A DNA stretch of 64,000 bases from Psammoneis japonica (GCA_008632985.1 QPGO01000287.1:1-64000), one strand, 5' to 3'. Shown: positions 1 to 64,000, numbered from the stretch's first letter. Notes: generated by a model from the letters alone, not told the origin. Made by a program: numbers and translations.

Positions 1-3000
1 CATGGTTGAATTGGAAGTGACGGTCAGTTCCTTGCCAGCGTTTAAGTCAGAGGACTTTGACATGATGGAAGATGCATCCTTGGGTCTCTTGTCACAGAAG
101 ATTGGTGTGCTGAAGGAACCATTGCAACATGCAGTGAGGCCAGCAGCAGCCCCGGCTGAGTTCATTGATGATGTGGAAGAGCGTGTGTGCCAATTGAGTT
201 TAAACAGACTTGACTTGGACAATCAAACTGCTTGTCATTTGTTGAAGGGATGTCTTGTGAATGTGGAAGAATGGATTTGGATTGAACAACACAACAACAC
301 AGAAAATGGAAGGGACGTGTTCTGGGCATGGGCAAACCATTGTGATGGACAAGGAGAGCTCAGCAAGTGCACGCAGTTGGTGCCAGCAAACATCCAAATG
401 ATGCATTGCAAAAATGAGCGGTGCTCTTGTCATTTGAGCGTCACACGGCAAAGCTCACCAGCGCATTTGCAATCCTGGATGAAAGTGAAGATGAGCAGAA
501 GACTGACAGGCAGAAGGTCAACATTCTCTTGTGTGGAATCAAAACTGACAATGTCAGGCTGCAAGCTTGTGCCCCTGTGATTGGCCAACAGTTTCCCTGT
601 GACTTCACTGGTGCTTGTGCATTTTTTTCTGCAGAAGTTTCTTGTTTACATGGCACAGCACAGTTGGAGGCCCAACATCATTCAAAGCATGAGATTTCAG
701 AGGCATCTTGTGATGGTGACCCAGGTGGAGGCTTTGCTGGAGGCAGTGGCCGTGGGCCACGTGGCGGTCAAGGTTGGAATGAAGGGGCCATGGCAGGGGA
801 CGCTTTGGTGGATGAGGCAACATGATTGACGGCGTGGATGTGCCGGATCCCACTTGTGTGTTCTCTCCAGATGAATGGCAGCAGTTGCAATTTAATGGTG
901 GTTGCACATGTGTCATGCAAGCTTGCGAGCACATGGCCAGATGTGGAGGTTGTGGACAACAGGGACGTGGCAGCCCTGCAGGAAGGCAGGCAGCAGCCGC
1001 AAGTCAAAATTCAGAGAAATTGTTGCAACAACAAACAGACTCAGCCCTCAGGTGGGGGATGACATGGACGTGGTTGCAAGAATGAAAAGGTGGCAGACAT
1101 GGAGCAGGATTTGGGTGCGGCGCTCATGCGCACACTTGACGGTTTGGGCAGACAGCATTGTTGGCAATGTCTGCAACTCATCACCTCCAAAGCTTTTGTG
1201 ACCACATGATTGCATCTGTGAAAATTGCACGCACCTGCAGGGAGGATGTTGACAAGCTGGAGCAGAGGGCAGCAGAACTTTGCACTGAGGACCGGCACTC
1301 CAAGATCATGGCAGAAGAACTGGTGAGGAAATGGAACGTTGGTTTGGATGCAGCAAAGGATTCTCTCAATGTTGCAACCCAGCAAGGTGTCAGAACGGTG
1401 ACACAACCACTGTTGAGGCGTGTTTGGGTGGACCACTTGGACTCACATTGAAAGAGACTGAAAGGAACATGGTTTGCAGATGCCCCAATTTTGAAGGTTA
1501 AGTTGATTCTGGGCAACACTTGCACAAACGTTTGTGCTCAGGGTAAATTCGTGAAGGCAGCTCCAATGACGGCAAGGTCTGAGACTGGACAATCATTGAT
1601 TGAGTTTGCAGATGACGCAGGAGCACCTGAAGGCTTGTCAATGGATGGAGCAGGAGAGTTCACTGGCGAGAATGCAGAGTTTGTGAAACATGCAAGAAGG
1701 GTGTGCACAAAGCTCAGGAACTCAGAGCAAGGTGGGAAGAACCAAAACCAAGCAGCAGAAAGGGAGACAGGTTTCTTGGCCAAGCATTGGAGATTGCTGA
1801 TGACCAAGAAGAATGTTCCAAAGTGGTCATGGGATTTTGGTCTGGTGCATGAAGCTGAGCTGTTGATGAGGATGGTGCAAGGTTGAGACAGGAGGACTGG
1901 ACACAAACAAGAAGTGACTGGACAAATGCCAGAAATTGGAGAGCATCTTGACTTTGGATTTTGTGATTGAGTCTGGTGGTGGGGTCGACCAGATTCAAAA
2001 TCAAGTGCAACCAAAGATCCAAGACAACTTGGCAGGTGGCTTGGAATGTCACACAAGGTTGGGTTGGATGTGTGCCATTGGATTGCAACTGAGAGTGGCA
2101 AATTGGTGTCCAAGATGTCAGTGGAACATGTCATGCAGGCCAACTGTGTTGAATTGGAAAAAAGACAACAAATTGGCAAGTTCAATGAAGCTCTAACAAG
2201 GCATCTCAATGACGCCAACTTTGTGCTCAAAGGTGACAAAGCAGCACCAGCATTTTGTTCAGATGACTGTGCAATTGATGGGGACAATGCGGCACAATGT
2301 CAAGGCAGTGTGACCCCGGACAATGAGGAATGTGGTGACATGCTGCTTGATGGCAAACAACCCAATGATGATGATGAGGACGCAACAGACCAATGTCTTG
2401 GCATGGAATCAATTTTGGACATTGGCACAGAAGGTGAAAGTCGCGTTGTGGTTGCGAAATGAGAAAGAGGCTGTGATGGCAAGCCGATTGGCAGGCAACA
2501 CCAGAACCCATTGTTTGACACACAGGAGCATGAAATTGAACACACTGACAGAACAACAGATGAGCATGCCACAAATGTCACACAGCTGAAAACATGTTTG
2601 CTCAGGTTGACAACAAGGGACATCAGTTCTCCATTTTGTGTGAAATCCAGGACCACAGGAAGAGTCAAGATGTGATTTCATGGGAAGACGGCATGGTTGA
2701 AACAGCAGGTGGTTAGAGCAAGAAGAAAGTCACAACAAAAGGCTGGGAGTTGCTGACAGCATGGAAGGACGGCAGTTCTGACTGGGTCAAGTTGAAGGAC
2801 ATAAAGACTCTAACCCAACAGAAGTGGCCAAGCATGCAGTGGCTGATGAGCTGGCATTTGCCTGGCGGGTGCCTCATGTGCCACGGAAACGGAACAGGAT
2901 CACATCCAAGGCCAAGTCAAAGTGTTGGAGGACTGCACATGAGTTTGGCATCAGGTTGCCAAAGAACGTGAACAAAGCACTCCGGATTGACTGCAAGACA

Positions 3001-4317
3001 AGGACTGACAATTGGGCTGGGGCAATTGACAAGGAGATGACTAAAGTCAAGGCAGCTTGGGCGAAACATGAAGAAGAAACTCTGCAACAAGTTCAAGAAG
3101 GAAAGAGTCAAAAGCTGTGTGGGTGCCAAGAGATGCAGTGCCATTTGACAGTTGACATCAAGATGGATTTTACACGCAAGGCAAGGTTTGCAGCTGGGGG
3201 TCATGCTGCTGGGGCACTGGAGTCAATTGCCTGTTCAAGCATTGTTTCAAGGAACAGTGCACGCATTGCTTTTATGTTGGCATTTGAACTGACGCAAGTG
3301 GACCCTGACACATGTTTGGGAGCAGCAGCCCATGAGGATGGATTTTTGAGCATTGTGAGATGTCATTGGTTTGTGTTGATGACACATTGACAATGTTGCA
3401 TCAAGGCAAGTCAGTCATTGAATCCATTGCTCAGTGTCACAAGATTGAGCCTGGAAGTGAAGGTGAGCCAAAGACTCACCTGGGAGCAATGACAGAGAAG
3501 ATCCAGATGCAGGATGGCAGGATGATTTGGGGCAGCTCACCAAGAGACTACATCAAGAATGCAATTGAGCCTGTTGAAGACTTGCCAAGTGAGGATGGAG
3601 ATGGTGTGGTCCTGAAGAACAATGCAAAAGATTCATTCCCATCAAACTGCAAGCCTGAGTTGGATGTGACAGATGAGCCACGTCCCAAGTTGATGTCCCA
3701 GTGTTTGCAGCTTGTTGGCATTGCAAGCTGGGCAATCAAGTTGGGTTGCATTGATGTTTTGTTTGAAGTGTCTTTCCTTTCTCAGCATCAGGCAAATCCA
3801 AGGAAAGGTCATTTGGAGGCCTTGTGTCATGTGTTTGCTTGCATCAAGAAGCAAGAATCGGTTTTGACCCTGAGAGTCCTGAGATTGGCAATTCTGTTTT
3901 CAATGCTGTGGCAGATTGGACCAAGTTTTATGGAGATGTTGAGGAAGAGCCATCACCAAGGATGCCCAAGCCATGTGGAAACCCGGCAGCCACACACGCT
4001 TTTGTTGACGCAAATCATGCAGGGAATGTCGTCACGCGCAGGTCACACTCTGGCGTTGTCATCTTTGTGAATGATTCTCTAATTGTGTGGTTTGGCAGGT
4101 GACAAAACATGGTTGAGTCTTCCATGTTTGGCAGCAAGTTGGTCACAATGTGGGTTTGCAAGGATGTGATTGTTGCTTTGCATCACAATTTGCGAATGTT
4201 TGGGGCACTGATTGACGGGCCAGCAAATGTGTTCTGTGACAATCATGGCATGGTGAAGAATGTCAGTGTTCCAGAATCCACTCTGCACAAGAAACAAAAT
4301 GCAGTTGATTGTCATGT
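1..4317 (+). mobile_element. Degenerate Ty1/Copia (CoDi-like) retrotransposon A, 5' part: gag, integrase, RT, start of RNase H
   Basis: Frameshifted ORF pieces: gag-like 'WIWIEQHNNTENGRDVFWAWANHCDGQGELSK'; 'AEELVRKWNVGLDAAKDSLNVATQQGVR' and integrase 'MDGAGEF..NQNQAAERE'; RT 'DIKMDFTRKARFAAGGH', 'LVCVDD'; RNase H 'AFVDANHAGNVVTRRSHSG', 'VFCDN..KKQNAVDCHV'. INT precedes RT (Copia order). There is an internal RT deletion near 3280. Confidence 0.9.
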
Positions 4318-4735
4318 TGCCCCATGCATGCACCAGGCGCTGAAAAAGAAGATGTGTTACGACTTTGTCGTTGTGAAAATCATGAGCTGGTTTAGAGCAG
4401 AGAAAATGGGATCGTGCGAGTAGGGAATCTTGCCAATTCCCTGTTCGGCATTGAATCGATCATGCGCTCGCATTGTGGATCGTGCGAATCAAGCCATCAC
4501 GCGCCATGCACGAGTGATGTCATCGCATGGAATCATGCTGCCATCGTGGGCCAGACGACGGGCCAGTGTGCTTCACACGGACGCTCTCTTGGCATCCTTC
4601 TGGAATTGCCCAAGACCTGGAGCCACGCCCTCCTGTGGTCGTGCTTCCCAGGCACGTGTTAACAACACTGCGTTGCCATGCACAAGAGGCTTGTGCACGG
4701 TCTCACTGTGTTGTCCAGTGGCGAGGCATGCTGCA
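4318..4735 (-). repeat. Gypsy-1 3' LTR
   Basis: Aligns to 10246-10677 with one small indel; lies next to the PPT. Confidence 0.9.
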
Positions 4736-4774
4736 CACTCCCCCATGATCAGGGCCGTTAAGTGACAGGATGTC

Positions 4775-7138
4775 TCACTGGTGATGGGGTGCAATCTGCC
4801 GTAGATTGCACGTGTCCATCAGCGCTCCGTTCTGGACACACAACGTGCCGTTGTCATGTGCACAGACAACTCTGGCGGGTCCTGCATGGCTGTCAGAACC
4901 GCATTTAGAGGATTGTTCCTGTTTGATGAGTGCCAATTGCCCTGCGGTGTGTTGACACTCCTTGCGTTTCTGATTTTCATGCTTGTTGTTTGAGTGGGTG
5001 AGCTTCTGCTTTCTGGTTTCCATGTGCTTCCACTTGGCACGATGGGCAACAGACAAAACCGCATCGCGTCCGAAGACCAATTGCACGGGACTTGCGCGCG
5101 TGGTCGTGTGTGCCGCAGCTCTAGTGGCGAAGGCTGCTGCGGAGAGGATGCCACTCCATGGGTCATCTTTGTCCAGTTCCACATCCTGTGCTGAAAAGGA
5201 ACGCACCATGTTGCCAAGTGTCTGGTGCACACGTTCCACTGTGGCATTTGCCTGTGGATTCCGTTTGCTTGTGGGTTTCTTCAAAATCCCACAGTCATTT
5301 TTAATCATCTGGCTAAATTCTGCCATAAATTCTGTCCCACGGTCATAAACCACCTGGGTTGGCCACGGATGCCTGCATGGCCACGTTTGTTCCACGAGGT
5401 TTGCTGCGACGTCTGCGCGTTTCGTGGACACTTCTTTAATCTCAAACCACCATGTTGCTGGGTCAATCATTGTGACTGCCCACAATTGCAAGGTGTCCTT
5501 TCCGCGTCTTTGAATTTTACATGGCCCTGTCACATCCATGCACAGAGTCTCCCATGGAATTATCTCTGCGACCTTTTCTGGTGGCTTCCCACAACGCTGC
5601 GTTCGGCGTTTTGTCTTCTGGCATCGATCGCACTCAACGCACGTAGAATGCACCGTAGACCTCATGCCAGGCCAATGGAAGTGCTGGGCAACAGACATTT
5701 CCGCACGTGTCTCACCTGGATGACACAGTGTCTCGTGGTGCCATTCAGTTAGCGGAACCTGCAATGACTGCGGCACTGCGATTTTGTCCTTATGACAGAT
5801 TAACTGTCGTGATGACCCTCCCCCACGACATGCGCGAATGGAGCAGTCGGACGAGTCCTTGGCTCTTGAGAGTGGGCGCTTGTCCTTTTGTTGTGCTTTT
5901 TGAATGCGCTTGAAGCTAACAGGCAGAGACAGCTCATCTTGCGCGTCTGCATTAAAAGCTTCATGCAAAGGACGACTCGATGGAGTGTCTTTTACATCCG
6001 GATTAGCCTCGAAAGGCAAGCTGGGTGCCAGTCGAAGGCGACTGAGAGCGTCAGCGACTGGGTCATGGGCACCTTTGACACAGCGTAATTCGGGACCGCA
6101 TTCTTCGCATGTCAACTGCCAGCGCATAACGCGCTCGGCATTGAATGCTTTGTGCGTAAGATTTTTATGATCAGTGTGTGTGATCACACGATGACCAAGG
6201 AGAATCGTTCGAAATTCTTTCAACGTCTCCACAATGGCGAGCAATTCTCTCTCCGTTGTTGTGTGATTTAATTGCGCATCATCAAGCTTTCTGCTGTAAA
6301 AGGTGACAGGTTTGTTGTCTTGGGATGTGACTGCTCCCAATTGACATTTAGAGGCATCGGTGTGCATCTCAAAGGGTTCATTGGCACGGGATCCACGGGT
6401 GCACCCGGGAATTGCGGGATGAAAGGGGAAAGGGGCAAATGGGAATGTTGGGAAAGCAAGGGGCTGTTGTTGTGCCTCAAGGGTCCCTTCAGTGAGCCGA
6501 ACACGCACATTTGTCATCTGACCATCATGGGTCCGTCTTGTGGGGGGTGTCAAAATGTTGTGAAGGGACGCGTCTTGAGGATTGGTCGTCACATGACATG
6601 TGTGGCTATGAAGGTCACACAAAGTTGAAAAACGCATGTGCGCGTTTTTTGTGTGTGTCGTTTTCAGATTTATATGATGTCAATGGTCAAACACACAATG
6701 CACAAAATCATTTCTCGAGACCGCGTCTGCTCCACAATTTGACGACCCCCGAAAGGACGGACCTGCGAGGGTCAAATCGGCAACAAGCGTGTTTGGCTGA
6801 CTAAAGGGTCCCTCAAGGTAAAACAACAGCATGTCACTTTTCCACCATTCACATTTGCCCCTTTCCCCTTTCATCCCGCATTTTGCAGATTCCCCTGGTG
6901 CATCCGCGGATCCCGTGTTAAAATCAGGATGTGACAACAAAACATCATCCGACATCACCCGTTTGACGGTTTCGAACGCCTCGTCTTCAACGGACGTCCA
7001 CTCCCACTTAACAGTCTCGCTTGCGAGTCGTGTCAGCAGAGCCAAGACTTCAGAACGTCCAATCCACGTGTCGCGGCAGCAGCTCACCATGCCAATGAAT
7101 GAACGTAGGTCGCGTTTGTTGGTTGGAGTCACGATTCG
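4775..7138 (-). pseudogene. Gypsy-1 pol: RT-RNase H connection, RNase H and integrase, interrupted by MITE A1
   Basis: 'LRSFIGMVSCCRD', 'LLSHPDFN|EPFEMHTDASKCQLGAV', 'HTTTERELLAIVETLKEFR', zinc finger 'HETLCHPG..CDRCQ', 'DRGTEF', 'NPQANATVERVHQTLGNM'. Confidence 0.93.
6385..6917. mobile_element. MITE A1 (533 bp), TTAA-specific, piggyBac-like non-autonomous element
   Basis: Long imperfect TIRs CACGGGATCC..GGATCCCGTG. Right flank TTAA (6918-6921), left flank TTGG (6381-6384). Removing it restores the pol reading 'DFNEPF'. Confidence 0.9.
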
Positions 7139-8537
7139 CTAAATGGCGTCGACTTTATTAGGTGTTGGTCGCATTCCGTCTCTGTTGACCAGATAACCCA
7201 AGTATTCTAATTGGGTTTGACAGAAGTGAGATTTAGTTGCGTTAACTTTTAGTCCTGCTTTCTGGACCCTCAATAAAACTTCTTCAAGTTTGTTGAGGTG
7301 ATCTTCACAGGTGCCTTTTGTCACGACGAGAAGGTCATCTAAGTACGTTCGAACGAACGATAGATCTTCAAATAAGCCTGACATGCGTTCTTGGAAAATG
7401 TCTGGCGAATTACATAATCCCATGGGCAATGCCTGCATCTCATACTTACCCCACGGGAAGATGAGCGTGCAGAGCTTCTTACTATCAGTATCCAATCGTT
7501 TATGATAATAGCCCATATTTAAATCCAGCGATGTAGCCCACATAAAGCCTTCGAGCTTAAGTAGCATATCTTGGATATGAGGAATCGCATAAGGCAATCG
7601 CTTGATCCGTTTATTAAGCTCTCTCAAATCATTAATAAAGCGTACCGTTAAATCTTTCTCCGGTATGATAAATGATGGAGCTGCCCATTGGGATCGGTTA
7701 ACGCGTTTGAGAACACCGATACGTTCTAGGCGTTCTACTTCTTTACGTAGCGTAGCTTCGTACGCACGAGGTACTTTATACGGACGAGCGTGGTATGGTT
7801 CTACACCCTCCTTGAGTTGGATATGGTAGGGTTCTCCCTTCCATTCTCCTAATGTCCCATCAAATAAAAACTCATGGCGTTTCAATAGTGCCAAAAGGTC
7901 GTTTTGTTGAACTATAGAAATTCCTATTGCCTCTCGCGTTATGTCCTTGAGGCAGGCCGGCGCGTGCTTAGCGTCTAAAATACGCGAAATCCGGTCGGTT
8001 TCCGAAGATAAGGCTTCTGGATCTTGAAGATAGAAGGAGGTTTCCACCGTAGCATCTACGTGCCTCATTGGTACTTCTCCATTGACTAATGGCCACTCTA
8101 TCATCTGTTTAGAGAAGACAATATCAATGCCTTGCGTCTCCAGAATGTCACGTCCAATAATCATATCGTACTTGCCCAACTTTCCGTTGTGTACGTGGAC
8201 GGTATGCTTAAGTTCTGCAGTTTCGCATAATTCTGGTAACCGAAATTTAACGGTACAGTCGTTGGACGTACTAAACGAGCCTGCTACCGTAGTCCAGTTT
8301 GTCTCAGCCGTTGAATGGCTTCGCAGACGTTTACAGTATCGACTATCGAGTAGAGTACTGCTGGCGCCACTATCTAGTAGTGCCTCAATAGTTTGAGTCT
8401 TGCCCTTGCCATGTTTAGTATTCATAGCTATAAACAAGATTGGAGTAAGATGAGTCTTTTTAACTCGTTTACGGGATTGGCCTACAACACGTGTACGATG
8501 GTAATTCAGTTGTTCATTTATACATTCATCTAATGTA
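7139..8537 (-). pseudogene. Gypsy-1 pol: aspartic protease and reverse transcriptase (well preserved, TA-rich)
   Basis: 'ALLDSGAS', 'YDMIIGRD', 'SQWAAPSFIIP', 'DLRELNKRI', 'LDLNMGYYH', 'PMGLCNSPDIFQ', 'YLDDLL'. One TAG at 7139-7141. Confidence 0.95.
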
Positions 8538-8541
8538 TTAA

Positions 8542-9075
8542 CACGGGATCCGCGGATGCACCAGGGGAATCTGCAAAATGCGGGATGAAAGGGGAAAGGG
8601 GCAAATGTGAATGGTGGAAAAGTGACATGCTGTTATTTTACCTTGAGGGACCCTTTAGTCAGCCAAACACGCTTGTTGCCGATTTGACCCTCGTGGGTCC
8701 GTCCTTTCGGGGGTCGTTGAATTGTAGAGCAGACGCGGTCTCGAGAAACAATTTCACACATTGTGTGTTTGACCATTGGCGTTGCATAAATCTGAAAACG
8801 ACACACATGAAAAACGCGCACGCACGTTTTTCAACTTTACATGACCTTCATAGACACACACACCATGTGACGATTGATCCTCAAGACGCGTCCCGTCACA
8901 ACATTTTGACACCCCCCCATGGGACGGACCTGTGATGGTCAGATGACAAGTGCGCGTGTTCGGCTCACCAAAGGGACCCTCAAGGCACAACAACAGCCCC
9001 TTGCTTTCCCAACATTCCCATTTGCCCCTTTCCCCTTTCATCCCGCAATTCCCGGGTGCACCCGTGGATCCCGTG
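8542..9075. mobile_element. MITE A2 (534 bp), same family as A1, in opposite orientation
   Basis: Perfect TTAA TSDs at 8538-8541 and 9076-9079. Near reverse complement of 6385-6917. Confidence 0.92.
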
Positions 9076-9107
9076 TTAAAACTACCTGCATCGTGTCGGC
9101 CCCCTTC

Positions 9108-10184
9108 TCAGGCGTCCGAATCTTCGGAATCACTCAAGTTGAGGTCGCGGAAGTGATTGAGCTCCTCCTCGTGGGCCTTGCGCTTTTTCTGAGCATTGGC
9201 AAAGAACTCCTCGACCTTTGATCCGATGAGAGCATCAACATCTTCCTCATTCCGAGGTTTTGTGTCAGGCTTGCCACCTCCGTCGTTGGAATGTCCAGTC
9301 TTGACACGTTTCACGTGGTGCTTGAGCTGACGGCAATCCTCCGTGTGATGTCCACAGCCAGTCCTGTGCAGCATGCACGACTTCTGGGTGTTCCGTTGGG
9401 TCGTGATCAATGACTCAGGATTGTCCGTTCTACGTCCCCGCTTGCGTGGAACCTCAGTGTGTTGGTCCTGGTTGCCTTCGGCAAGCTCGACCTGCTCGAT
9501 GCGCTCACAGAACTGTGCAAATTCGGCGACAGTGTGCGCCAACGGGTCAAAATTCTGTAGCGTCATGAACTTCTGCCATGCGTTCGGCACACCGCACTCG
9601 AACACATCGCACAGTTCGTCATTGGGCAATGGTGCCGGTGTTTCTCCATCCTCCGTCACGGGTGGAAACTGAGAGACACAGCCGTTAATTTCAACAGCCC
9701 TCGTGACGTGGTCATGAGCAGAAACCTCTGCAGGCTTGCACGTGAAGCGCCGCAGATGACGCTTCTGCAGTGGTGCCGCCCCATGTGGGAAGACACTTTC
9801 CTTTAGCTTCGCGATGCATGCTGCGCACGCAGCGTTGGTTTGGGATGCCTGCTTGTCAGCGGCATCATTAAATGACGTCAGAGCATCGCCCTGTAGCAGG
9901 TCACGCACAAGGGCAAATTTTGCTGGCCCGGTCGTGATGTTTTGTCCTTCGTGCACGCGATCCACGTTGCATAGAAAGATCAGGAGTGTCTCGCATGTAG
10001 CCGCAGAAAGGTGCGGAATGCCCATCTCGTGCGTTGGACTGTCTGGATCAGCAGGGTTGTTGCGCAGCTTGAACGTCTGGCACTCGCCCTGCTGCAGCTC
10101 TTTCTTCTCCGGCCGTGCGAACGGAATCGGCAGCTTGATCCGCTTCTTCATGGTCGTTTCAAGATTTGTCGGTCCAACCAACAT
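9108..10184 (-). pseudogene. Gypsy-1 gag
   Basis: Open ORF between the 5' LTR and pol, with a C-terminal 'CMLH..GHHTEDC' knuckle-like motif. Confidence 0.85.
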
Positions 10185-10245
10185 TTCGTAGTTTCGTTTC
10201 TGTAGATTTCGTTGCCTCGCACAACATGCGGGAGCAATGTTGCTG

Positions 10246-19555: not shown

Positions 19556-19581
19556 ATTGAACCCCACCCATCCTGACAGTG

Positions 19582-38525: not shown

Positions 38526-38527
<2 letters not shown>

Positions 38528-54328: not shown

Positions 54329-55007
54329 ATGGTGAGTGCCGCGAGAGACTATCGTAGATGTGGCAACGCCTGTAGCTTGAGAAATACAACCTTCATTGCC
54401 TCTATTGATACAAGAAAGAGGCGCTTGGAGCTATGCTTTTCAACCCGCTTTGTTCTGCCTCATGGTTTCCTATCGATCGTCGTACGATCGTTACGTACGT
54501 TGTATTTAGCGACAATTTTTGTATTCATGTGTTCTAATCAAATTTCCGTATTCGTTTTTTCTATTTCCCTATTTTTGCTTTTAGATTGGATCTCGCGCTG
54601 CCGTTGTTGGTGCCCGCAGGGCTGCCGTGGTTGCTACGCAACGCCGCGGTGCCGCTCAAACCGTTCCTCGGCAGGGAAGTGTGGAGCAAATGGAGGCGGA
54701 AGCGTTGGAGCAGCTCAAGGCTCGTATCGCGGCTCAAAAGGAGATTTTCAAGCAGACGCACAAGTCGGAAGCCGAAGAGATGGATGAAATGTGGAAATGG
54801 GTCAAGGTGTCCATTATGATTGCGGCACCCGTGTGCCTTTTGAGTTCGATGAAGGATATTCTCTTTGGTGATCACCACCATCCCGATGAGGGTCCCAAGC
54901 CGGATTACATGGCGATTCGTAACAAGGCGTTCCCGTGGGAGTGTGAGGATTGTGCGCTCTTTGACAGGAAGTGCTGGAGGAAATGCCGTGCCGAGATGGA
55001 AAGTTAG
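54329..55007 (+). CDS. COX6A: Cytochrome c oxidase subunit VIa-like; ATG-only first exon (54329-54331), exon 2 at 54585-55007
   Basis: ATG|GTGAGT..TTTAG|ATTGGA. Presequence 'MIGSRAAVVGARRAA', TM 'WKWVKVSIMIAAPVC', and 'YMAIRNKAFPW..ALF'. Confidence 0.85.
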
Positions 55008-55161
55008 AGAACAAGTAACTCTAGGTTTTCTTGTATAATTAGTGTTTATTAGACTTTCCGTATTGGAACTGTTGCGTTTACACGAAAGATTTAACAGTAG
55101 GTTAGGTTGTGAATCCTAGCTCTCGCCGAGAAATGGGGCTATCCATCGCATTCCTCGCTTC

Positions 55162-56498
55162 TTACATGTCACTCTGAGGCAACATTTCCCGTTTATGGAC
55201 AGCCATCCACTCATCGAGTCCATTCCAGAAACTCGCATAAGTCACACTATCCAATCCCCGCTTATCCCGATTGAGTTTCCCCGTCTTGACGTTCCAACCT
55301 ACCAATTCCTTGGGCACCGGAGCGCCCTCCATGCCAATGTAAAAGCCATAGGTATTGGAAAAGAGACTGACAGCCGTATCGTATCCCTTGATCCAATCCT
55401 TGAATTGCCACGAAGCTCCCAAGGCCACGACGGCCACGATGCGAGCCCACTCCTTGGGATCGCGCCCAAGTTTGGATTTGGGATTGTCCATGAGTTCATA
55501 CTCCACCACACCACCACCGAGACGCGCCCCCACCTTGCGGGAAAAGGTCGTGGGCGAATTCTTTTGCTTCTTGATTTGCACGTCACGGGGCACAAACTTG
55601 GATTTGGCGAGAAACTCGTGGGCGTTGACGAGCGTAATGGGAAAGGTCATGCCCTTTGGAACAACAATGACTGGTTTCTTTCCCACAAGGTGCTCCTTTT
55701 CTTACTGACGGGAGTGTGGGGAGTCCTTGGCGACTTTCTGCTACTGCTGCTGCTCGAGCCTTGATGGTTTGTAGATACAAATCAAGGACTTGGGCAAAAT
55801 CACGATTGTTGGAGGATCGCAGGATGGATGCAGAGTTTCCCACGGGTATTTCCATTTGTTCAATCTGCTCCGTCTCGTTTTTGAATTCTTGCACCATTTC
55901 CTTTGTAATTTGAAAACCCTCCGCCGACAAGGCAGCTCGGAGCGTCGACGTTCCCTCGTCAGTGCGTTTGTCCACGACAACGTTTAGATTGGTAAAGAGC
56001 TGCTCATCTGTAATGGGTGCCTTTGGTTTCTTTTTCGTACGAATGTCGGCTTCGTCGTGCCCCCGATGTCTCTTTTTCTTTTCCGACGAACGGTCCTTGT
56101 GACGACGATGTTCGTGCTTCTTCCTCTTGCTACTACTCGACACCTCTGGCGTCTTGACGGCAGCAGCTGGCTGCTGCTCTTGTGCCTCGGCGCTTGCTCC
56201 CAATACAAAGCCCACCACAACCGGCTTGTCAAGTACTTTGACCGGGTCACTGACATTGTGTGACTTACAGGAATTACGATAAGGCAAGAGACCTGATTGG
56301 GGTCCAACACTTGTAGAAACAGAGATGCCAAGGTGTATTTGCATGATTTGGATTGATGCGAAACCTCATACACCTTGCTGGCGTCTGCGTGGTGTCGTTT
56401 AGCGCAAGAGTGCTGCCGTCGGACGACAACTCCACATTCTTCAACACCCCGTCCTTGGCCCACAGTTGAAGCAATGCCAAACCGTCTTCAGAAGACAT
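55162..56498 (-). CDS. CDC73: CDC73/parafibromin (Paf1 complex subunit), with several apparent frameshifts
   Basis: C-terminal domain 'PVIVVP..ITLVNAHEFL..FVP', 'WARIVAVVALGASWQFKDW', 'LNRDKRGLD'. The N-terminal part is spread over three frames. Confidence 0.88.
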
Positions 56499-56762
56499 GA
56501 TTAACGACAAGAAAGAGTTTGGAGTTGCTGGGTTGATCGATGTCGTCGTCGCTGAGAATAAGTAATGCTAGGCTATGTGCTGTTGTGTAGGGCCCTACTT
56601 GTAGTTCTTGCGTCGTGCGTCTTCGGCTTCAGTCTTTTCCAGTCTGGCGGTTGATGAGTGTATAAACCTTTCAGATATAGACGCATGTGCTCTCGATAAC
56701 ATTTCATTCGAGCGATTCGAATACCGGTACAGCTTTTGCCCCGAAGCACAAAAAAACTCACC

Positions 56763-58057
56763 ATGGCGGCGGATGATCAGAACGCAGCAGCGGATATGCC
56801 GGTGAAGACAGAATGGGTCGGCACCAACAAGTCTGAAAATGATATTTTTGATGAACAACGTGCTTTCCTTAACACCCTTCCCCAATCAGAACAAAATGAC
56901 CGTGCAGATGGATTGTTTTTCTCCCATATGGAGTCAATCTGGGACTCTAATGATGCCACTATTCAGGCTGAAGACTTTGAAACGATTCGTCGTATTTCCG
57001 AGCAGGGTCATGTCTATGACTTGTGCTGCGAATACATTCACGACGACTCCATCGAAATTGGAAGAGGATCTCGCAGTGGAATAACCAACGCAGACGAAAA
57101 TGAAGCGAAGATCGACGCTTATGGCAATGACAATTGTCAGGCCGCGCACTTGTTATCTCATGCTGAGGTGTGCCATAAAGCTTTTGTTTTTATCGGCGAG
57201 GCTGCGGTAGGTAGGAAAGTTGGTGCTCAATCTACAACCAAGTCGGGTCGGAAGCGGAAGAAAGCCCAAGTTCTCGGGAGCAGCACGAACGCCCGGAACC
57301 GGCTCAGGATCCTCAACGGCGTTCACGGTATAAATAATACCTCTCTCAAAAGTAACCAGTACAACAAGATGTACTTGAAGTATCAAGGCGAACTGTACGA
57401 TACGGACAATCCGTCCATGCTAGTTATCCCTCTGCTGCCTCTTAAACAAGTTATGGATTGGGCTATGGAGGGCCATCAAGAGCCCTACGACATTCTGACA
57501 CTCACGTTCGGTCCTAGATCCCGTCGCGCAGCCAAAATTTTGGAAACTGCTCCTCGAGAGTGCAGCGATAATGAGGTTGAGGAAGCCAGACGACTACTGG
57601 AGACGTTTGTCAAGGGCGTTGCTGGATCTCTTGTTCAAAACGACGTCTTCGAAAGTTTTCACAAGACCGAACTAAATAACGAGTCGAACCCGAGCTTGAT
57701 GAGATGGAAGGAACTCGTAAATCGGATAAAGACGGGTCGCAAGAGATGATTAAGGCGCCTACCCGCAGAAATCCTCTCCCGGCAAACTTCCACGCTGCCA
57801 AAGCACGTCTCTCCAAGGGAAATTCCTTACCAGATCCGTGGCTGTTGACGCTGAAAGCTGCGATCAACTACTCTGCTTGCAACAAGACGAAGCTCATGCC
57901 ATCTTGCCAACCTTGGACTGAGGATGACGGCCCTCCGAACACTGATCAAGGTCAGCAAGATTACAGCAAAGATAACATTGATCATGCTGCACAGCTAGCC
58001 CAGTCAAAGCAGCAAGGTGGAAGTTGCATCGAACTTTTTGACTGGGATAAGCTGTAG
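56763..58057 (+). CDS. Hypothetical protein, possibly HNH-endonuclease-like; frameshift or short intron near 57740
   Basis: 337-aa ORF overlapping a 117-aa ORF; 'QAAHLLSH' motif. Normal TA content. Confidence 0.55.
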
Positions 58058-58329
58058 CCCAAAAGGGGTGAAATTTTATGAAACTTCAAGAATAGTGGCC
58101 CACTGATGGAGCAGGAGTAACTAGATTAATGTCGCCAGAACCAACTGCCAAATAATAATTTCCTGCATCTAGAGTCAAGCCAAAACTGTCTACAGGCATT
58201 TCTGTTTCTTGGAAAATTGCTAAAACTTATCCTTGCGAGCTATATGGTGCCAAGTCTGCGTTCGCACCATTTTTGACAGTGCTGAAGGCTGCACCAATCC
58301 GCTTCACTTCACTGGGACTAAACTGAAAT

Positions 58330-61300
58330 GCATCTAAAGAATCTGTTCTGCCAACAGTTTCAACCAAAGGTGGTTGCCGCTGCAGCTGGTTGTCCCCACG
58401 ACGAACAATCGCACAAAGGCATGGTGGCAGCTGCCGGTGCAGCCACTGCTGCGGGTTGTCCCCATGACAAATGATCACATGGCAGAGCAGCAGCAGGAGC
58501 CAAGGCTGGAACAGGCACCAAGGGGTGGTGGTGGAGTGCCCCAGTTTCCAAAGGGCAGAGGATTCCCATCTCCGCCTCCTTGGAAAAAAGCTGTGTGGTG
58601 GTGGCGGTCGTGATGGTGGACAACAAATGCCCGACGAGGTGCAACAGTTCAGCAGCAATGAAAGTGTCCGCAAATGCTCAGCTTGTGAGCACAAGGCAGT
58701 CCAAAGAGACCTTCATCTTGGCTGAGTGAGTGACTTTTGTGGCAACTGAGAAAGACTCAAGAAGAGTGTTTCATCCACACAAGCTGCTGTTGCTCTCAAA
58801 AATGGCGTTGCTGATGCTGCAGTGGAGATTGCTCAGTTCTGATTCATCGCAGAAATCCTTCTGTTCCGAAAGGTCAAACTGAGCATCAACAGGCATTTGC
58901 TTCATTTTTTCTTTGTCATTGGAACATCATCACAATGACCCCACCAGTTTGTGTCACAGTCTTTGTCACAACTGTCATTGAACCATTGACACCATTGCTT
59001 TCAAAGCAATTGTCAAGAGATTGGAATTGCAAATCTCCCAATCCATTCCCTTTGACTGAATTGCATTGCCATGCATGCAGTGTGCAGCATCCATCCCAAT
59101 GTGATCATCTGCAATGATTTTGCAATGTGCCTTGCACTGTCCAATTCCACAATGACACCACTGGGGACATTCGCACTCAGCATGGTTGTTGCAGTTTTCT
59201 GCTGTGAGCAAGTTTCAAGAGTCTTGCAAGGCATCAACATGAGAAGCATCCTGTGGTTGCCCCATCAAAATGAGACTGTCTGCCACAACATTCCAAGCAT
59301 TTCTCTTGCAACTTTTCAATGTCTGGCTTTTCAATGCAGATGTGCGCAAAAGAACATTCCAACCATGAGTGCTTTCTCCCATTGGGTCACTTTTCAATGA
59401 CAGTCGAGCACTTGTCTCTCATTTTGTGGCAGTGGTGCCACTTGGGAAAAGACTTGCCCCAATGTCTTGCAAATGCTGTTGCAACACATGTTTCAATTGT
59501 GGTGTGCCCTTTCTCACTTGTTGCAAGGCACAACACCTGACTTTGGCCCATGTCACACTCTCAATGCAACACAGTTCCATTGTGGCTCCTTTCATCATCT
59601 GTGTTTTCTGCATTTCTGGCAATTGAGCAATTGACACAACAGATTTGGTCAAACTCAGCCACTTGGATGTCTTCTGTCCAATTGTCCAACACCAACAGGT
59701 TTGGCACATCAGCATCAAGTGCTTGCTCTTAAATCAGAATGCTCCAATGACAGTGATGGTCCTTGAATGAGACAAGCCAATTTGCTCCAAAGTCAAATTG
59801 TTCTTTTGAAATGGGTTGTTTCTGCTGCTGTGTTGCCAAAACTGAGCAAAGCAAGACTTGGCTGCAGCAGTCAAGAGCACCAACCACGCCAATTCCTTTC
59901 ATCGATGACCACTCCAGCTTTGCCACTCAACATCAATGGCACCATGGCAACCAACAACATCACACACCACAAATGCCATGTGTCTGAAGATGCATTGGCA
60001 CACTTTTTAAAGCAAGGTGTTGTGACCACCACTTTCCCACTTTTGTTCACTGGGCAGACAACAAAGAGAAGTTCAATTGGCCTTGATGGCTTGAAATGAG
60101 TGAGCTTTGGTTTGTTGTTGTCTTTGGAGTGCACAACCATGAGAGATCCACCACCACATTTCAAACTGTGCTCCAAAGACATGGCTTTGTCAAGTGGGAC
60201 ATGGGTGGCAAAAGAACAACATTTCTTTTGCATGCCTTCATCTGACTTGTCTTGACAGCCCACTCTGGAAGCTTTTTGATTTCTGTAAAAATCTCATGTG
60301 TTCCACCACATCCAGTCAACCAAGAGCTCTCAATGCATCTCTTTGATTGGACACTTTGTTGGGAACATTGCAACAACCTTGATCCACCAACATCAAACTG
60401 TGTGCACCTTTGCAGTGCCCCTCAAGTCCATTCATTTGAAATGAATCAGTGCACGCTTTTGGTTGACTCTTTTTGACAGTTCTGGGTGCAACAATGGCTC
60501 AAGCATGTTGACCACAACTTGGCCAATGCACCAGTCGGATTGCTCAGCAGACAGATGTGCTGGCCTTGTGATTTGGCATTGTGGTGTCAAATGCGTGCAA
60601 TCATTGGTCCTTTCCCCATCACAAACAAAATGGATGGCTGACACATTGATGCTCTGTTGTGCAACATGGCATGAGCCAATTCCAGATGGTCTGGGCACAT
60701 CCCCTTTGGCGATTTTGTGTTGGTCATTTGCAGTGATTTATCATGCTTTGGGAATTTGACACACACAATTTCATCAAGCAGCATTTTGTTTGCATGATTG
60801 CAGAGTTTGGCATGCCCCCAAGAGCATTTGATGAAAGGTGTGAATCCTCACTCATCCACATTTTTCACAAGCTGCAACCACCACAGCTCCTGCATGCTGC
60901 AATCCAGCTCATTTCATCCATGCACACTGACTTTAAAGTGTGACACTGGCTCATTCATGGTTGTCTTCATCAGCCCCAACAAACCAGATGCTGAATGCAG
61001 CCACCACACATGCCATTCATGTGGCACCACATGTCACAAAGAATCTCCACATTTGAGTCTTGCCTTTTGATCAGACAACAGAGACCAAAGGTGCAAAGGC
61101 CATCAATTTTCTTCTTTTTTGTGACCATTGCCCACTCCATGAACAACCTGGCACTGTCTGCAAATGTGCACATCCTTTGTTCCTTCTTGAAAGTCTTTCT
61201 TCTTGAACAAAGAAAATTTCTGATTGAGTGCAAGCTCTGACGCCAAAGCTGGTTCCATTGTGACAGAAGCCAAATTTGCCATTGAATGGTTCACTCCACC

Positions 61301-64000
61301 CAAGTCACAATTGATGCATTCTAAATGAATTTTGTCACTGGAGTCCTCTCCTTCAACATCCTCAGATTAAACGTTGTGTTCCAAGCCAACATTGTCTTCA
61401 TCTGCATCTTCCATCTCTTCATTGGCATTGACCAACAATTCATTGGCACCCACATTGTCTCCATCTCTTTCATCATGCTTTGTTGCAATCCATGCAGGAA
61501 GCTTTTGTTTTCTCCTCACAACAGTTTTGCACAAAACTTCTCTCATTTGCTCATTGTTGTCTTTTCTCTTTGACTTGTTTCCCTAAAAAAACCTTGGCAA
61601 CAGGTGCAAGAAATTTCAAACTCAGGTTGATTTTGTAATGTGTTGTGCTGAGTTGAGATGAGAGCAGTTGGGGTTGCCTTTCCGGGTCCCTCCCAAGAGT
61701 CAGCAATGTTTTGGGCAGCATGTGATGCACAGTGCAGGCTGGTTGGTCAAGTTGCTCCATGCACATGGTCGCCAGTCACACAAAAGTTCTTGCCGCTCCT
61801 CATCCTGCCTCATGCCTCAAGCCTCACCATCATCTCTGTGGATGCCATGGTGTGATGTGTGATCTCTCACTGCAGCATCATTGATCACAAACTTGTTGCT
61901 GTTGTGTTTTGCCAGAGACACCATGTTGGCATGACTGAAGCAGAAGCAACTGCAAAAACACATTTGGCAAATGGAGAGGATCAAGTTGCATTGGACAAAA
62001 CTGCAGATGATGAGTCTGTTGGTGAAGGAACTCGTGGTGAGGAAATGCCAAAGCTGAAAGCACAGAAAAATGCAAAGCAATTGCCCTTTCATGGACAGTG
62101 TGTGGCCACATCATTGTTTCTCATGGATGCAGTGAACTTGGGAAACTCCTTCAACATCACCAAAACATGTGCACCTTTTGGAAATGATCTTGAGGCCTGC
62201 ATGCACCAACGTTGGTGCTGCAAAAGCTTTCCTTGATTGTTCTCCAGACAAGAAACAACCACCTCAAAAAGCTGAGAAAGAGCCATTGGCTTTGGTGATT
62301 GACAGTTTTTGTCATCCATGGGTCTTCTGGGACAAGGAAGTCAACATTTCTCACCTGTTTTGCAGGTCATGCTTGCTTGGGCAGATGCTTTTCCAATGTT
62401 GCTCTACTTTGTGGGTCCAAAAGCTCAAAGACAATCATGGGTGATCCAATCCCATCTGAAATGAAGTGCTGCAATGTGCTGGATGATGGTGCAACTGTCA
62501 TCAAAGAGGAAGCCATGGTGATGTGCGGAGCCAGTTGGAGAAATGTCTGTCAAATGTCAATCTCATTGTCATGGATGACTGTTCTCTGTGCCATCAGATC
62601 TCAGCAAATTCACTGGCACATTGGTTGTTGCTGCATCACCAAGCTTGCATGTAAAGAATCTCACAGATTCCATTGTTGATCATCATGTGTGTTGATGCAT
62701 CCCTCACTGGATGAAGAATCTGTGATGCAAGAAAATTTTGGGGCATGTGGCAGGAATTGCTAACTGTCTTTTTGAGCCTGCTTTTGCCAAAGAACAAAAG
62801 GCAGAAGAGAGTGTTGAAGAGGTGACTGCATGACAGATCACAAGGATGGCATCACTGCAGGCATCAGGCAGGGCAGAAAATTGTGTCATGCTTCACTCTC
62901 TTGTCCTGTGGAAGGTTGGCAGTGATTTTATGACCATGCCAAGCTTTGAGTTGGTTTCATGGTTCAGGGAAAAGCCAGCAGCCAACAAACTGTGTCTTGA
63001 GTCTGTGGGCAAACTGAACAGTGCAAGGCAGGATGTGGCGCCGCTCTTGGGGGGCGAGGGTGTGCAGGTGCTCTCTTTGAAGCACTTGCCATTTGAATGA
63101 TTCAAGTGGGATGGTGCTCTTGATGTGCACTCTCTGGAAGATGGCAGAATGGTCAAAACACTTTGCATCCCACCCTTCAACTTAGATCCAATTGTGATGT
63201 TCATGTCTCCAACTCAGAGTCAGGGCAGTTTTCAATGCATCTCCTGTTCCCCACTGTGACCAACTTTCCAACGTTTGATTGTTTCTACTTTTGTGCAACT
63301 GGTGAGGCATTTTTGCTGCAAATGACTGTCACAAGAATCCATGACTTGAAGAACAGTGGTGCTGCCAAGACCAAATGCTGCTTTGACAGGATGCTCGGAG
63401 CTCACCACAGGCCCAAATGATGTCTGGCTGTGTTTGTTGTGCCAGCCAACATGTGGCTGCAGGATTCATAAAGCAGAAAGTTGCTGGGACAGTCAATGAA
63501 AAGAAAGCAGATTTTAGGCCCTTTTTTGAACAATGGGTCATTGGAGTTTGAGGCATCTGCTTGTGTGTTCCCATGCTGCACCAACCTGATGTGGGGCATC
63601 TGCTTGTGTGTTCCCATGCTGCACCAACCTGATGTTGTCTCCATTGCTGGAGTGAGACTGGGCCTTTGAATCTCCTCATCATCAATTCTAACATCAATTT
63701 GAAGCCACAAACTCATCAAGAGGAAGAAGAAGAATTTACACCCTCTTGGGTGCTGCCGGCAAGACTGCATCTTCGCAAAGAAAACTTTCCAAAATTTGAT
63801 TGTCTCCACTTTTGAACAACTGGCAAGGCATCTCTGCTGCAAATGACTGTTGCAAGAGTCCACAACTTGAAGAACAGCAGTGCTTTCAAGACCAAGCTCT
63901 GCTTCAATGGGAGGTGCTCTGAACCGCTCACCACCAGCCCAAGCAACACCAGGTTGTTTTTGTTGCGCCAACCAATGTTGCTGCAGGGTTCATGAAGCCA
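58330..64000 (-). mobile_element. Decayed TA/CG-depleted repeat region, including a probable MULE transposase/SWIM remnant (~58900-60400)
   Basis: SWIM-like 'CECPQWCHCGIGQCKAH'; MULE-like 'GSLMVVHSKDNN..LLFV..DTWHLW..VVIDER'. Confidence 0.45.
63552..63635. repeat. Tandem duplication, period 43 bp
   Basis: ggcatctgcttgtgtgttcccatgctgcaccaacctgatgt occurs twice. Confidence 0.9.

Follow-up and report, generated by a model that had tools for sequence, protein, structure and literature searches.

Blocks of repeat DNA in a 64,000-nt window (the whole stretch of DNA analysed here) have lost nearly all of their TpA dinucleotides beside host genes that are untouched, and this depletion is real. With a probability of roughly 0.75, we attribute it to a region-restricted process that turns TpA into TpG or CpA, of the same kind as one described in another marine alga, Bigelowiella natans. 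Composition was followed across the 64,000 nt by dinucleotide observed/expected ratios (O/E) per kb and by TA and CG counts per 250 bp, and the features of the window are as follows.

1..4317: deep domain, almost free of TpA and CpG (per kb in 1-4000, TA O/E 0.03-0.07 and CG 0.15-0.33)
4318..10677, minus strand: Ty3/gypsy LTR retrotransposon (LTRs 4318-4735 and 10246-10677), TpA-depleted with near-normal CpG, an internal island excepted
4775..6379, minus strand: RNase H-integrase reading frame, hypermutated (conserved Tyr columns)
6381..6921, plus strand: MITE-like foldback copy L, 541 nt, TTAA-type ends, between RT and RNase H (copy comparison)
6780..8680, minus strand: unmutated island with protease-RT and the inner ~142 nt of both MITE copies (TpA O/E, Tyr columns)
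8538..9079, minus strand: inverted MITE-like foldback copy R, located between gag and protease (copy comparison)
10750..28081: deep domain with a 365-nt palindrome at 19582-19944 (O/E, repeat search)
28082..32830, minus strand: young gypsy-like LTR element inside depleted DNA (LTRs 28082-28458 and 32454-32830), right half about half depleted
32831..38250: deep domain (O/E); its Pfam matches, to ankyrin and a 3'-5' exonuclease, are weak
38251..43226: host-type domain with normal TpA; its tandem duplicate (38569-39493 / 39731-40619) is the negative control
43227..45629: TA-only domain (44001-45000 free of TpA, CpG O/E 0.9), with a third MITE copy at its end (45131-45585)
45640..58243: host genes with normal TpA, including an AFG1-like ATPase (46020-47549, plus strand) and a urea transporter (51373-52506, minus strand), from Pfam
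58244..64000: deep domain (O/E and edge mapping)

The earlier note on this DNA had described blocks in which TpA is near-absent and TG/CA in excess, next to host genes with normal TA, and both the per-kb ratios and the 250-bp counts reproduce this. Pooled deep domains (32,513 bp) have O/E values of 0.05 for TA, 0.18 for CG and 1.80 for CA/TG; they hold 126 TpA, where ~2,520 are expected by base composition and ~1,510 at the O/E of the host domains. The corresponding values are 0.17, 0.91 and 1.49 in the TA-only domains (7,173 bp, GC raised to 0.518), and 0.60, 1.06 and 1.13 in the normal, host-gene domains (23,901 bp). Per kb, TpA O/E is 0.01-0.14 in 1-5000, 10001-28000, 33001-38000, 44001-45000 and 59001-64000, and 0.20-0.29 in 5001-7000 and 9001-10000; host-gene windows (39001-43000 and 46001-58000) range from 0.46 to 0.73, except for 0.36 at 53001. 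The longest stretches devoid of TpA measure 1,395 nt (58335-59730) and 1,300 nt (43763-45063). The limits of the signature are sharp, to within 100 bp, with the last/first dense TpA at 28067/28097, 38093/38348, 43226/43440, 45563/45629 and 58243/58335. The blocks first delineated were thus recovered, although the undepleted island lies at ~6780-8680 and not at 7100-9090, and what had been left as a gap at 28090-32830 is the young LTR element, with an undepleted left half (TA O/E 0.83-0.88 in 28001-30000) and a right half that is about half depleted (0.31-0.47 in 30001-33000).

The direction of the change can be read from the older gypsy element. We defined Tyr columns as positions with Tyr in at least 70% of 40 homologues. 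The 15 such columns of its depleted half (RNase H-integrase) now hold Tyr once, His (CAY) eight times, Cys (TGY) five times and Ala once, versus ten Tyr, one His and one Trp in the 12 columns of the undepleted half (Tyr kept vs His/Cys, Fisher p = 3.5e-5); TA O/E in the unmutated island is 0.91 and 0.77 in 7001-9000. The other frequent mismatches in the RNase H-integrase frame are also of the kinds that TA>CA/TG would produce: six I>T, five I>V, five V>A, three L>P and two I>M. Conserved Tyr codons and TTAA ends had both been put forward as markers of polarity, and both bear this out: 13 of the 15 columns in the depleted half are His or Cys, and in the MITE family one side shows TTGG or TCAA in place of TTAA. 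As judged from these sequence comparisons, the change runs from TA to CA/TG, i.e. as A:T>G:C transitions. One may also consider that no targeted process exists, and that the blocks are intrinsically TpA-poor foreign or repeat DNA, or that ordinary, RIP-like C>T change at CpA/TpG acted on the TA-rich parts. TpA under-representation is indeed common among genomes, and the young LTR pair by itself gives no direction. However, the Tyr codons that are now CAY or TGY argue against this, a TpA O/E of 0.05 is incompatible with former pol coding sequence, and none of 79 related gypsy loci elsewhere has a TA O/E below 0.57 (median 0.80); differences of CA vs TG between repeat copies, moreover, require a TpA or CpG ancestor. 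We give this explanation practically no credence.

Such differences come from repeat pairs, where the claim that changes concentrate at TA holds for LTRs and MITEs, and a duplicate in host DNA has an ordinary spectrum. Among the 20 difference events of the young LTR pair, 15 are TA on the left vs CA/TG on the right and one is an adjacent CA-vs-TG double, with 29 TpA in the left LTR vs 14 in the right. The old LTR pair (26 events) has seven TA vs CA/TG, seven CA-vs-TG doubles, nine CpG-type, two transversions and one other. MITE copies L and R are 99.4% identical in purine/pyrimidine space and 91.5% in bases, and differ by 15 CA-vs-TG doubles, five TA singles, three CpG-type changes, two transversions and six other transitions; their inner 142 aligned columns retain TpA and contain one difference. 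Internal repeat pairs of 10750-28081 have 9-10 CA-vs-TG doubles each. The control duplicate, in contrast, has 49 differences, of which 26 are transversions, seven TA-type, seven CpG-type, eight other transitions and one a TA-vs-CG double; CA-vs-TG doubles are absent. The TpA-type share is therefore 16/20 in the young LTRs, 14/26 in the old LTRs and 20/31 in the MITEs, vs 7/49 in the control (Fisher p = 3.6e-7, 8e-4 and 6e-6, respectively). CA-vs-TG doubles are the residue expected of independent hits on one ancestral TpA, and since nearly all differences within the LTR and MITE pairs are at TpA, the hypermutation evidently acts in place, after integration. By our own rough arithmetic on the repeat pairs, uncorrected for saturation, the TpA rate would be about 30-45-fold above background per base.

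No simple targeting rule fits the 1.9-kb island within a mutated element together with the one-sided state of the young LTRs, and both could arise if the assembly mixes haplotypes or paralogues.

The same pairs bear on another route, in which ADAR-like A-to-I editing of retroelement transcripts was fixed by reverse transcription before integration. It would suit the signature in that a 5' U is favoured and repeat-derived dsRNA is targeted (10.64898/2026.01.13.699255). Yet LTRs are identical at integration and differ at TpA in both elements, the DNA-type MITE copies differ likewise, the two strands carry similar numbers of hits (His 8, Cys 5), the depletion extends beyond element ends into the flanks, and ADARs are described as confined to metazoans (Iyer et al. 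2011, PMC3239186). Such a route is highly improbable.

That either strand is affected, as had been proposed, is supported by the His and Cys outcomes in Tyr columns and by a balance of CA and TG per kb that has no excess scatter (SD of z 1.29 across depleted windows and 1.40 across host windows). The TpA that survive in deep domains have a distinct context: 4 are RTAY, 86 RTAR/YTAY and 162 YTAR, versus 566, 1098 and 388 in normal DNA (chi-square p = 3e-30), which corresponds to a survival of ~0.5%, ~6% and ~31%, respectively. The process is thus biased toward RTAY. In the small, directly polarised set, a pyrimidine at +1 follows 13 of 15 changed and 28 of 43 unchanged adenines, which is not significant (p = 0.19).

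As to the chemistry, we consider it about an even bet that an enzyme deaminates adenine in DNA to hypoxanthine. TadA, ADAT2-ADAT3 and the adenine base editors derived from TadA convert A to I beside a 5' U or T, and their fit here is to the 5'-T preference of the signature only. In tRNA the natural target, A34, invariably comes after U33, and U-A-C is the context read by bacterial TadA. We know of no enzyme that has been linked to a TpA signature in any organism, and a tRNA enzyme leaves the domain targeting unexplained; Pfam gave no deaminase domain in 20 large ORFs of the window. ADAT2 of amphioxus and of trypanosomes is reported to be active on DNA (cited in 10.64898/2026.01.13.699255).

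Modification of the thymine is an unlikely alternative to adenine deamination: TET/JBP-type oxidation or modification of T in TpA, giving 5-hydroxymethyluracil or a base-J-like product, would be mispaired or misrepaired to C, producing T>C on either strand. In these data A>G on one strand is indistinguishable from T>C on the other, RTAY is a palindrome and can equally be read as R-T-A around the thymine, and 5-hydroxymethyluracil and base J do occur at TpA in other protists. To our knowledge, however, both bases pair with A and are not strong mutagens. Adenine deamination is also the sole published proposal for the signature (10.64898/2026.01.13.699255). A maintenance-type N6-adenine methylase that marks RTAY in silent DNA, with the methylated A then deaminated or miscopied much as 5mC decays at CpG, is improbable. 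It is favoured by a target that is a symmetric dinucleotide within a 4-bp palindrome, and by TpA decaying alongside CpG in common domains. On the other hand, eukaryotic 6mA is, as far as we know, found at ApT and not TpA, we know of no indication that it deaminates faster than A, and the loss of TpA where CpG is intact means that the two marks are uncoupled.

The latter point also separates the process from CpG decay, of which TpA loss is independent, as had been argued: the TA-only domains keep a CG O/E of 0.91. Deamination of 5mC at CpG yields TpG/CpA from a symmetric dinucleotide too and explains the CpG loss of the older, deep domains (CG O/E 0.18), but it cannot remove TpA and we rejected it as the full cause; by a rough estimate from the old LTR pair, TpA loss is ~10x faster per site. 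In diatoms, cytosine methylation controls transposable elements (Hoguin et al. 2023, PMC9998398). The likeness to fungal RIP lies in dense transitions at a preferred dinucleotide of repeat DNA, with intact genes and wrecked transposon frames. RIP, however, is C:G>T:A, mostly CpA>TpA, and creates TpA, whereas here TpA is destroyed; as the earlier note had reasoned, RIP cannot account for TpA loss, which here reaches an O/E of 0.05. Neither is dependence on duplication evident, since domain edges fall inside repeat copies: two MITE copies each contain an edge of the mutated zone, ~140 nt in, and the young pair has one spared LTR. APOBEC3 and ADAR in animals likewise drive hypermutation by deaminases against mobile or viral nucleic acids, but their substrates are replication intermediates or RNA, edited on a single strand before integration, whereas the change here is in chromosomal DNA, on both strands and after integration. 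Editing of that type does not fit, as the differences within LTR and MITE pairs arose in place and involve both strands.

A further concern is that the depleted sequence might be a sequencing or assembly artefact, with a modified base at heterochromatic TpA miscalled and the DNA truly TA; such artefacts occur in nanopore assemblies at bacterial methylation motifs. The DNA run X1, the only one found, comes from the same sample as the data set that best contains the window, and is therefore not independent of it. Its contigs, taken from Logan, have a 31-mer word depth of 57-74 and a longest length of 315,122, from which X1 probably consists of accurate short reads. Over the 8.2 kb of 55316-63581 they match the window except for 35 letters; the domain at 58244-64000 is reproduced by contigs of 3,905 and 4,314 nt, with 17 and 18 other letters. 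At the third MITE locus, one contig omits 45123-45605 and has 31 other letters, which are rich in TpA. Among 16 listed differences between X1 and the window in deep-domain DNA, where few TpA remain to mutate, one is TpA-type. A basecalling artefact is unlikely because the depleted sequence recurs in these separately built contigs, and error-prone reads would presumably not assemble to such depth and length. In addition, His and Cys outcomes alternate over ~100 bp and CA/TG is balanced per kb, a misfit with a strand-majority long-read call; no CpG was created at the sites; and the B. natans signature was called from Illumina data (10.64898/2026.01.13.699255). Altogether, we regard an artefact as very improbable.

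Transposon DNA had been named as the target, and this stands for the two LTR elements and the MITE family. Pfam identified RT_RNaseH, Integrase_H2C2 and rve at 4775-6637 and RVT_1 plus protease at 7139-8437 (both minus strand), and matching of gypsy pol homologues located pol remnants at 29092-31263 in the young element. For the deep domains the claim is less secure: of 129 ORFs scanned with Pfam (none of the 20 in 1-4317 matching), two gave weak matches, Ank_4 (E 6e-5) and DNA_pol_A_exo1 (E 0.0035), both within 32831-38250, and pol homologues matched only the two LTR elements, leaving no gypsy remnant in ~32 kb of deep domains.

The earlier note knew of no described system of this kind, which no longer applies: TpA-only A:T>G:C hypermutation has been reported in B. 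natans (Mettrop et al., bioRxiv 10.64898/2026.01.13.699255, April 2026 version), where integrated NCLDV and virophage DNA is hypermutated and adenine deamination is proposed. In mutation-accumulation lines, where new mutations arise in culture and in some lines only, two viral regions acquired 231 mutations, 230 of which were A>G or T>C; the authors place all of these on TpA, and the regional rate exceeds that of the remaining genome ~1000-fold. Shared with that system, as the preprint describes it, are the A:T>G:C change, the TpA target, the TpG and CpA products, the discrete regions and the sparing of host genes; the long-term trace in B. natans, clusters poor in TpA and rich in CpA+TpG with reverse-transcriptase and DDE genes among them, is also similar to the one seen here. 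The hosts differ, the named relatives of the AFG1-like ATPase in the window being diatoms (Stramenopiles) and B. natans a chlorarachniophyte, as do the targets, LTR retrotransposons and a TTAA-type MITE here versus giant-virus inserts. Depletion here is near saturation (O/E 0.05), compared with a rho of 0.45 in a B. natans NCLDV region, and we observe an RTAY bias and an overlay of CpG decay, whereas the main text of the preprint mentions neither sequence context nor CpG. The evidence there is experimental, whereas ours is comparative.

We therefore envisage a nuclear process in a diatom-like alga that converts TpA to TpG or CpA within restricted regions. It acts in mobile DNA and in other DNA of silent appearance, once integrated and on either strand, and spares adjacent host genes. 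It prefers RTAY, the changed A preceding a pyrimidine, and may outpace other substitutions by a factor of tens or more and CpG decay by ~10x. Over time ~95% of all TpA would be removed; in older domains, ordinary decay of CpG to TpG/CpA is superimposed. Targeting may depend on chromatin or on a state triggered by insertion, and the effect may be genome defence. What is new here is such hypermutation in a diatom-like genome, on retrotransposons and MITEs, and near saturation.

The TpA-poor domains described in the earlier note were reproduced when dinucleotide observed/expected (O/E) ratios per kb, and TA and CG counts per 250 bp, were computed across the window. They fall into two classes, deep domains in which TpA and CpG are both nearly gone and TA-only domains in which TpA is depleted and CpG is near-normal, and are set beside the normal class in the following table.

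Dinucleotide composition by domain class (class; positions; total length; O/E of TA, of CG and of CA/TG; GC content)
Deep; 1-4000, 10750-28090, 32830-38250, 58250-64000; 32,513 bp; 0.05; 0.18; 1.80; 0.460
TA-only; 4000-6920, 8750-10750, 43250-45500; 7,173 bp; 0.17; 0.91; 1.49; 0.518
Normal; 6921-8537, 28092-32763, 38250-43250, 45640-58250; 23,901 bp; 0.60; 1.06; 1.13; 0.464

In the deep domains 126 TpA remain, against about 2,520 expected from base composition, the longest TpA-free run is 1,395 nt, and domain edges are sharp, the switch to or from dense TpA taking place within 100 bp or less. The depletion is progressive, running from loss of about half of the TpA (right LTR of a young element) through O/E 0.17 to O/E 0.05. 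Because TA-only domains exist, with CpG persisting at O/E 0.91, TpA loss is separable from CpG decay. The view that such decay fails to explain the loss of TA is thereby borne out: CpG decay is present in the window as a separate overlay upon the TpA loss and is not its cause, TpA having been lost where CpG was kept.

Genes and mobile elements in the window
46020-47549, AFG1-like ATPase (Pfam), normal domain
51373-52506, urea transporter (Pfam), normal domain
4318-10677, minus strand, older Ty3/gypsy element with LTRs at 4318-4735 and 10246-10677
28082-32830, minus strand, young gypsy-like element with LTRs of 377 nt
6381-6921, 8538-9079 and 45131-45585, MITE-like foldback family, a 541-nt unit with TTAA-type ends and terminal inverted repeats

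The AFG1-like protein has its named relatives in diatoms, at 55% in Thalassionema nitzschioides, 49% in a Chaetoceros and 48% in Cylindrotheca fusiformis; the top match overall stands at 66%. This one gene suggests that the sequence comes from a diatom-like stramenopile. Host-type sequence also contains a tandem duplicate of about 0.9 kb (38569-39493 and 39731-40619, 94% identity), which adjoins an LRR-type ORF at 40439-41893. The first two MITE copies are mutually inverted and lie inside the older gypsy element, flanking its protease-RT part. X1 and X2 are two of the three sequencing runs listed, all of one sample and none entered as RNA, and their contigs (Logan contigs for X1) were aligned to the window. 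An X1 DNA contig lacks 45123-45605, the stretch that spans the third MITE copy, which therefore looks like an insertion polymorphism. X2 contigs omit short GT..AG stretches (48070-48158, 89 nt; 50945-51027, 83 nt; others within 49372-50227), and since these skips resemble spliced introns X2 behaves like RNA, though it is listed as "DNA?"; the skips would then be introns of host genes. X2 cover is zero over 44001-45334 and almost nil over 58675-64000, absent cover not being evidence of silence. At the left edge of a TA-only domain, 43260-43620 is very CpG-dense (35 CpG in 43251-43500), carries many CGATCG-like words and shares word content with the older gypsy LTR; it could be a solo or truncated LTR.

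The depleted sequence had been called transposon DNA, a name that the data bear out for the two gypsy elements and the MITE family and do not support for the deep domains. Stop-to-stop ORFs of at least 90 aa that overlap depleted domains number 167, of which 129 were scanned with Pfam (those dropped being mostly the shortest overlapping ones), and for the deep domains this returned only two weak matches (Ank and DNA_pol_A_exo1). In a tblastn search of 120 gypsy pol homologues against the window, remnants were confined to the two LTR elements, with none in deep domains, and the ORF at 44212-44970 (minus strand) had a single weak match (E 9.6e-6) among 1.84 billion representatives. Internal repeats do occur in the deep domains, as does a 365-nt palindrome (19582-19944) that is near-perfect in purine/pyrimidine space (95%) and whose arms differ by nine CA-vs-TG doubles; a related piece lies 3.4 kb from it, at 23127-23234.

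Differences between the copies of three repeat pairs concentrate at TA, as had been claimed, when compared with those of the host-domain tandem duplicate.

Differences between repeat copies, in events (pair; total; TA vs CA/TG; CA-vs-TG doubles; CpG-type; transversions; other transitions; p against the control)
Young LTR pair; 20; 15, the left copy having TA every time; 1; 1; 2; 1; 3.6e-7
Old LTR pair; 26; 7; 7; 9; 2; 1; 8e-4
MITE pair; 31; 5; 15; 3; 2; 6; 6e-6
Host-domain tandem duplicate (control); 49, including 1 TA-vs-CG double; 7; 0; 7; 26; 8; control

A CA-vs-TG double is the trace of two independent hits on one ancestral TpA. For the doubles of the MITE pair a CpG ancestor is unlikely, because CpG is largely intact in that pair, and its copies are 91.5% identical in bases vs. 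99.4% in purine/pyrimidine space. The left young LTR holds 29 TpA and the right one 14. By rough arithmetic on the pair counts, which is uncorrected for saturation and is no measured rate, change at TpA bases was about 30-45 times as frequent as at other bases, and TpA sites of the old LTR pair were altered, on equally rough and uncorrected figures, about 10 times as often as its CpG sites. These pairs show that the TpA change occurred in place, after integration; editing of RNA or cDNA before integration is contradicted by LTR and MITE copies that differ in place.

One may also consider that the depletion was introduced by sequencing, as a strand-majority miscall from long reads. Such a miscall predicts kb-long runs of one product and should sometimes yield CpG, and neither was seen. 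Moreover, X1 contains 86% of the words sampled from 43000-50000, and its contigs (word depth 57-74 over the aligned stretch, longest contig 315,122) match 55316-59207 with 17 other letters and 59265-63581 with 18. The depleted sequence thus recurs when deep and evidently accurate reads are assembled separately, albeit reads from the same sample and with the library type missing from the record, and a miscall is unlikely.

For the direction of change, full-length pol homologues (P0121-P0160, the best 40 of the 120 listed) were aligned to both halves of the older gypsy element, a column being counted as conserved Tyr when at least 70% of the 40 have Tyr there. The 15 such columns in the depleted RNase H-integrase half read His (CAC/CAT) eight times, Cys (TGT/TGC) five times, and Tyr and Ala once each, as against ten Tyr, one His and one Trp in the 12 columns of the undepleted protease-RT half (Tyr kept vs. 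His/Cys, Fisher p = 3.5e-5), which confirms the proposed direction TA to CA/TG. TA>CA or TA>TG changes, within or across codons, would also yield the other frequent mismatches of the depleted half (I>T 6, I>V 5, V>A 5, L>P 3, I>M 2). When TpA-type columns, grouped by inferred codon logic (24 columns of I>T, I>V, V>A, L>P, I>M and T>A, plus 13 Tyr changes), are discounted, identity of this half at conserved columns goes from 244/309 to about 281/309, beside 198/225 in the undepleted half, and on that count both halves look like one element of one age. Among 79 related gypsy loci from metagenomes none was TpA-poor (lowest TA O/E 0.57, median 0.80), and no 1-kb window fell below 0.25. A search for a close paralogue or unmutated allele of the mutated pol gave best identities of 59% (longer proteins) and 58% (near-length proteins). 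Three of the metagenome loci (L059, L029 and L032) have strongly depleted CpG (O/E 0.14-0.20) and ordinary TpA (0.57-0.65), so in their host organisms gypsy elements undergo CpG decay without TpA loss. One of the 120 pol homologues, P0238 from an ENA contig, reads Tyr 18 times, His four times and Cys three times over 32 conserved Tyr columns, and may represent another organism's copy that is partly mutated at TpA.

Both strands are affected: in one frame of the depleted half, the eight His and five Cys alternate over about 100 bp, and strand runs of CA or TG, sought per kb, nowhere exceeded the host-domain scatter (SD of z 1.29 in 31 depleted windows vs. 1.40 in 16 host windows). Surviving TpA in deep domains (both strands counted; R, purine; Y, pyrimidine) comprises 4 RTAY, 86 RTAR/YTAY and 162 YTAR, vs. 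566, 1098 and 388 in normal domains (p = 3e-30), which corresponds to length-scaled survival of about 0.5%, 6% and 31%, the chief surviving words being TTAA and CTAA/TTAG. In R__R settings CA outnumbers TG by 2233 to 1642 (961 to 801 in normal DNA), an excess that is expected if the base changed is the adenine preceding a pyrimidine. Within the young LTR a pyrimidine follows 13 of the 15 changed adenines, and none of the 11 adenines with A at +1 changed (p = 0.19, not significant alone).

Inside the otherwise hypermutated older element lies an island of about 1.9 kb with normal TpA (6780-8680). Its edges fall about 140 nt within the two inverted MITE copies, so that the limits of mutated domains ignore repeat units: the inner 142 aligned columns of these copies, on the protease-RT side, have one difference and keep TpA, and the outer 400 hold all the doubles. 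Either the assembly may switch haplotype or paralogue here, or the island may be a patch that is truly protected. In the young element the left LTR and left half are spared, the right half is about half depleted and both flanks are deeply depleted, and at the empty site of the third MITE the MITE-free X1 contig has TpA-rich letters where the MITE-bearing window reads CA. All of this would follow if the mutated state were allele-specific and the assembly switched haplotype or paralogue at repeats, and would equally follow if the process were patchy and cis-nucleated. Differences between X1 and the window in the deep domain have an ordinary spectrum, one of 16 being TpA-type among the 40 listed of 171 differences.

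The earlier note knew of no described system of this kind; its interpretation was right in substance, and the kind itself has been described, in one 2026 preprint. According to the main text of Mettrop et al. (bioRxiv 10.64898/2026.01.13.699255), the 302 nuclear mutations of Illumina-sequenced mutation-accumulation lines of Bigelowiella natans included 231 in an integrated giant-virus region and a virophage region, 230 of the 231 being A>G or T>C and all of these, per the authors, at TpA. The rate in viral regions was about 6e-7 vs. 3.5e-10 elsewhere, with only some lines hit; the same text reports 124 clusters of TpA-poor, CpA+TpG-rich windows, an enrichment of TpA-poor genes for reverse-transcriptase and DDE domains, and a proposal that an ADAT2-like DNA adenine deaminase is responsible. 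The words diatom, CpG, flanking, trinucleotide and context are absent from that main text. Going by that text, the window carries the same TpA-only A:T>G:C signature, but in another lineage, with retrotransposons and MITEs as targets, far nearer saturation and with a context rule added; its TpA hypermutation is a new case of a kind of process known from this preprint. No report of TpA hypermutation in diatoms was found in the literature searched, which surfaced the B. natans preprint and papers on fungal RIP, a process opposite in direction to the change in the window.

As to the chemistry, we lean towards an enzyme that deaminates DNA adenine at T-A-Y and would be guided to silent or newly inserted DNA. 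The 5' T neighbour is invariant at the natural TadA/ADAT target. Deamination is favoured because of this neighbour, the reported activity of ADAT2 on DNA (as cited in Mettrop et al., 10.64898/2026.01.13.699255) and its standing as the sole published proposal. The sequence data would be fitted equally well by modification on the thymine side or by a route through adenine methylation. If it is deamination, the enzyme could be lineage-restricted, a lead being the deaminases with fused SAM and Tudor domains that Iyer et al. 2011 (PMC3239186) list as restricted to stramenopiles.

A bolder reading, which we hold to be unlikely, at perhaps one chance in four, is that an old DNA adenine-deaminating defence, guided by chromatin, is common to diatoms and chlorarachniophytes; it would be triggered in cis by a new insertion, act allele by allele, read RTAY and erase TpA in mobile and viral DNA. 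The TpA-rich letters at the MITE-free allele are a thin hint of such cis, allele-specific action. If true, this would be a genuine mirror image of fungal RIP. To our knowledge, all eukaryotic genome-defence hypermutation known before 2026 was C to T, and the one report so far of a TpA-directed A:T-to-G:C process, for which we know of no enzyme, is a preprint on a single alga.

For annotation, depleted domains hide transposons from similarity searches and have inflated ORF lengths, since TAA and TAG vanish. The RTAY preference offers a biochemical read-out for candidate enzymes, and work on base editing would have an interest in a natural adenine editor of DNA that reads a short motif. As two distant hosts carry the TpA signature, comparative genomics becomes possible, and could ask which deaminase, TET/JBP and methylase families are common to genomes with the signature and missing from diatoms without it. 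A second, much stronger case, in a diatom-like genome, would show that the process is not peculiar to one species or to giant-virus inserts, that it acts on ordinary retrotransposons and MITEs, and that it can reshape tens of kilobases.
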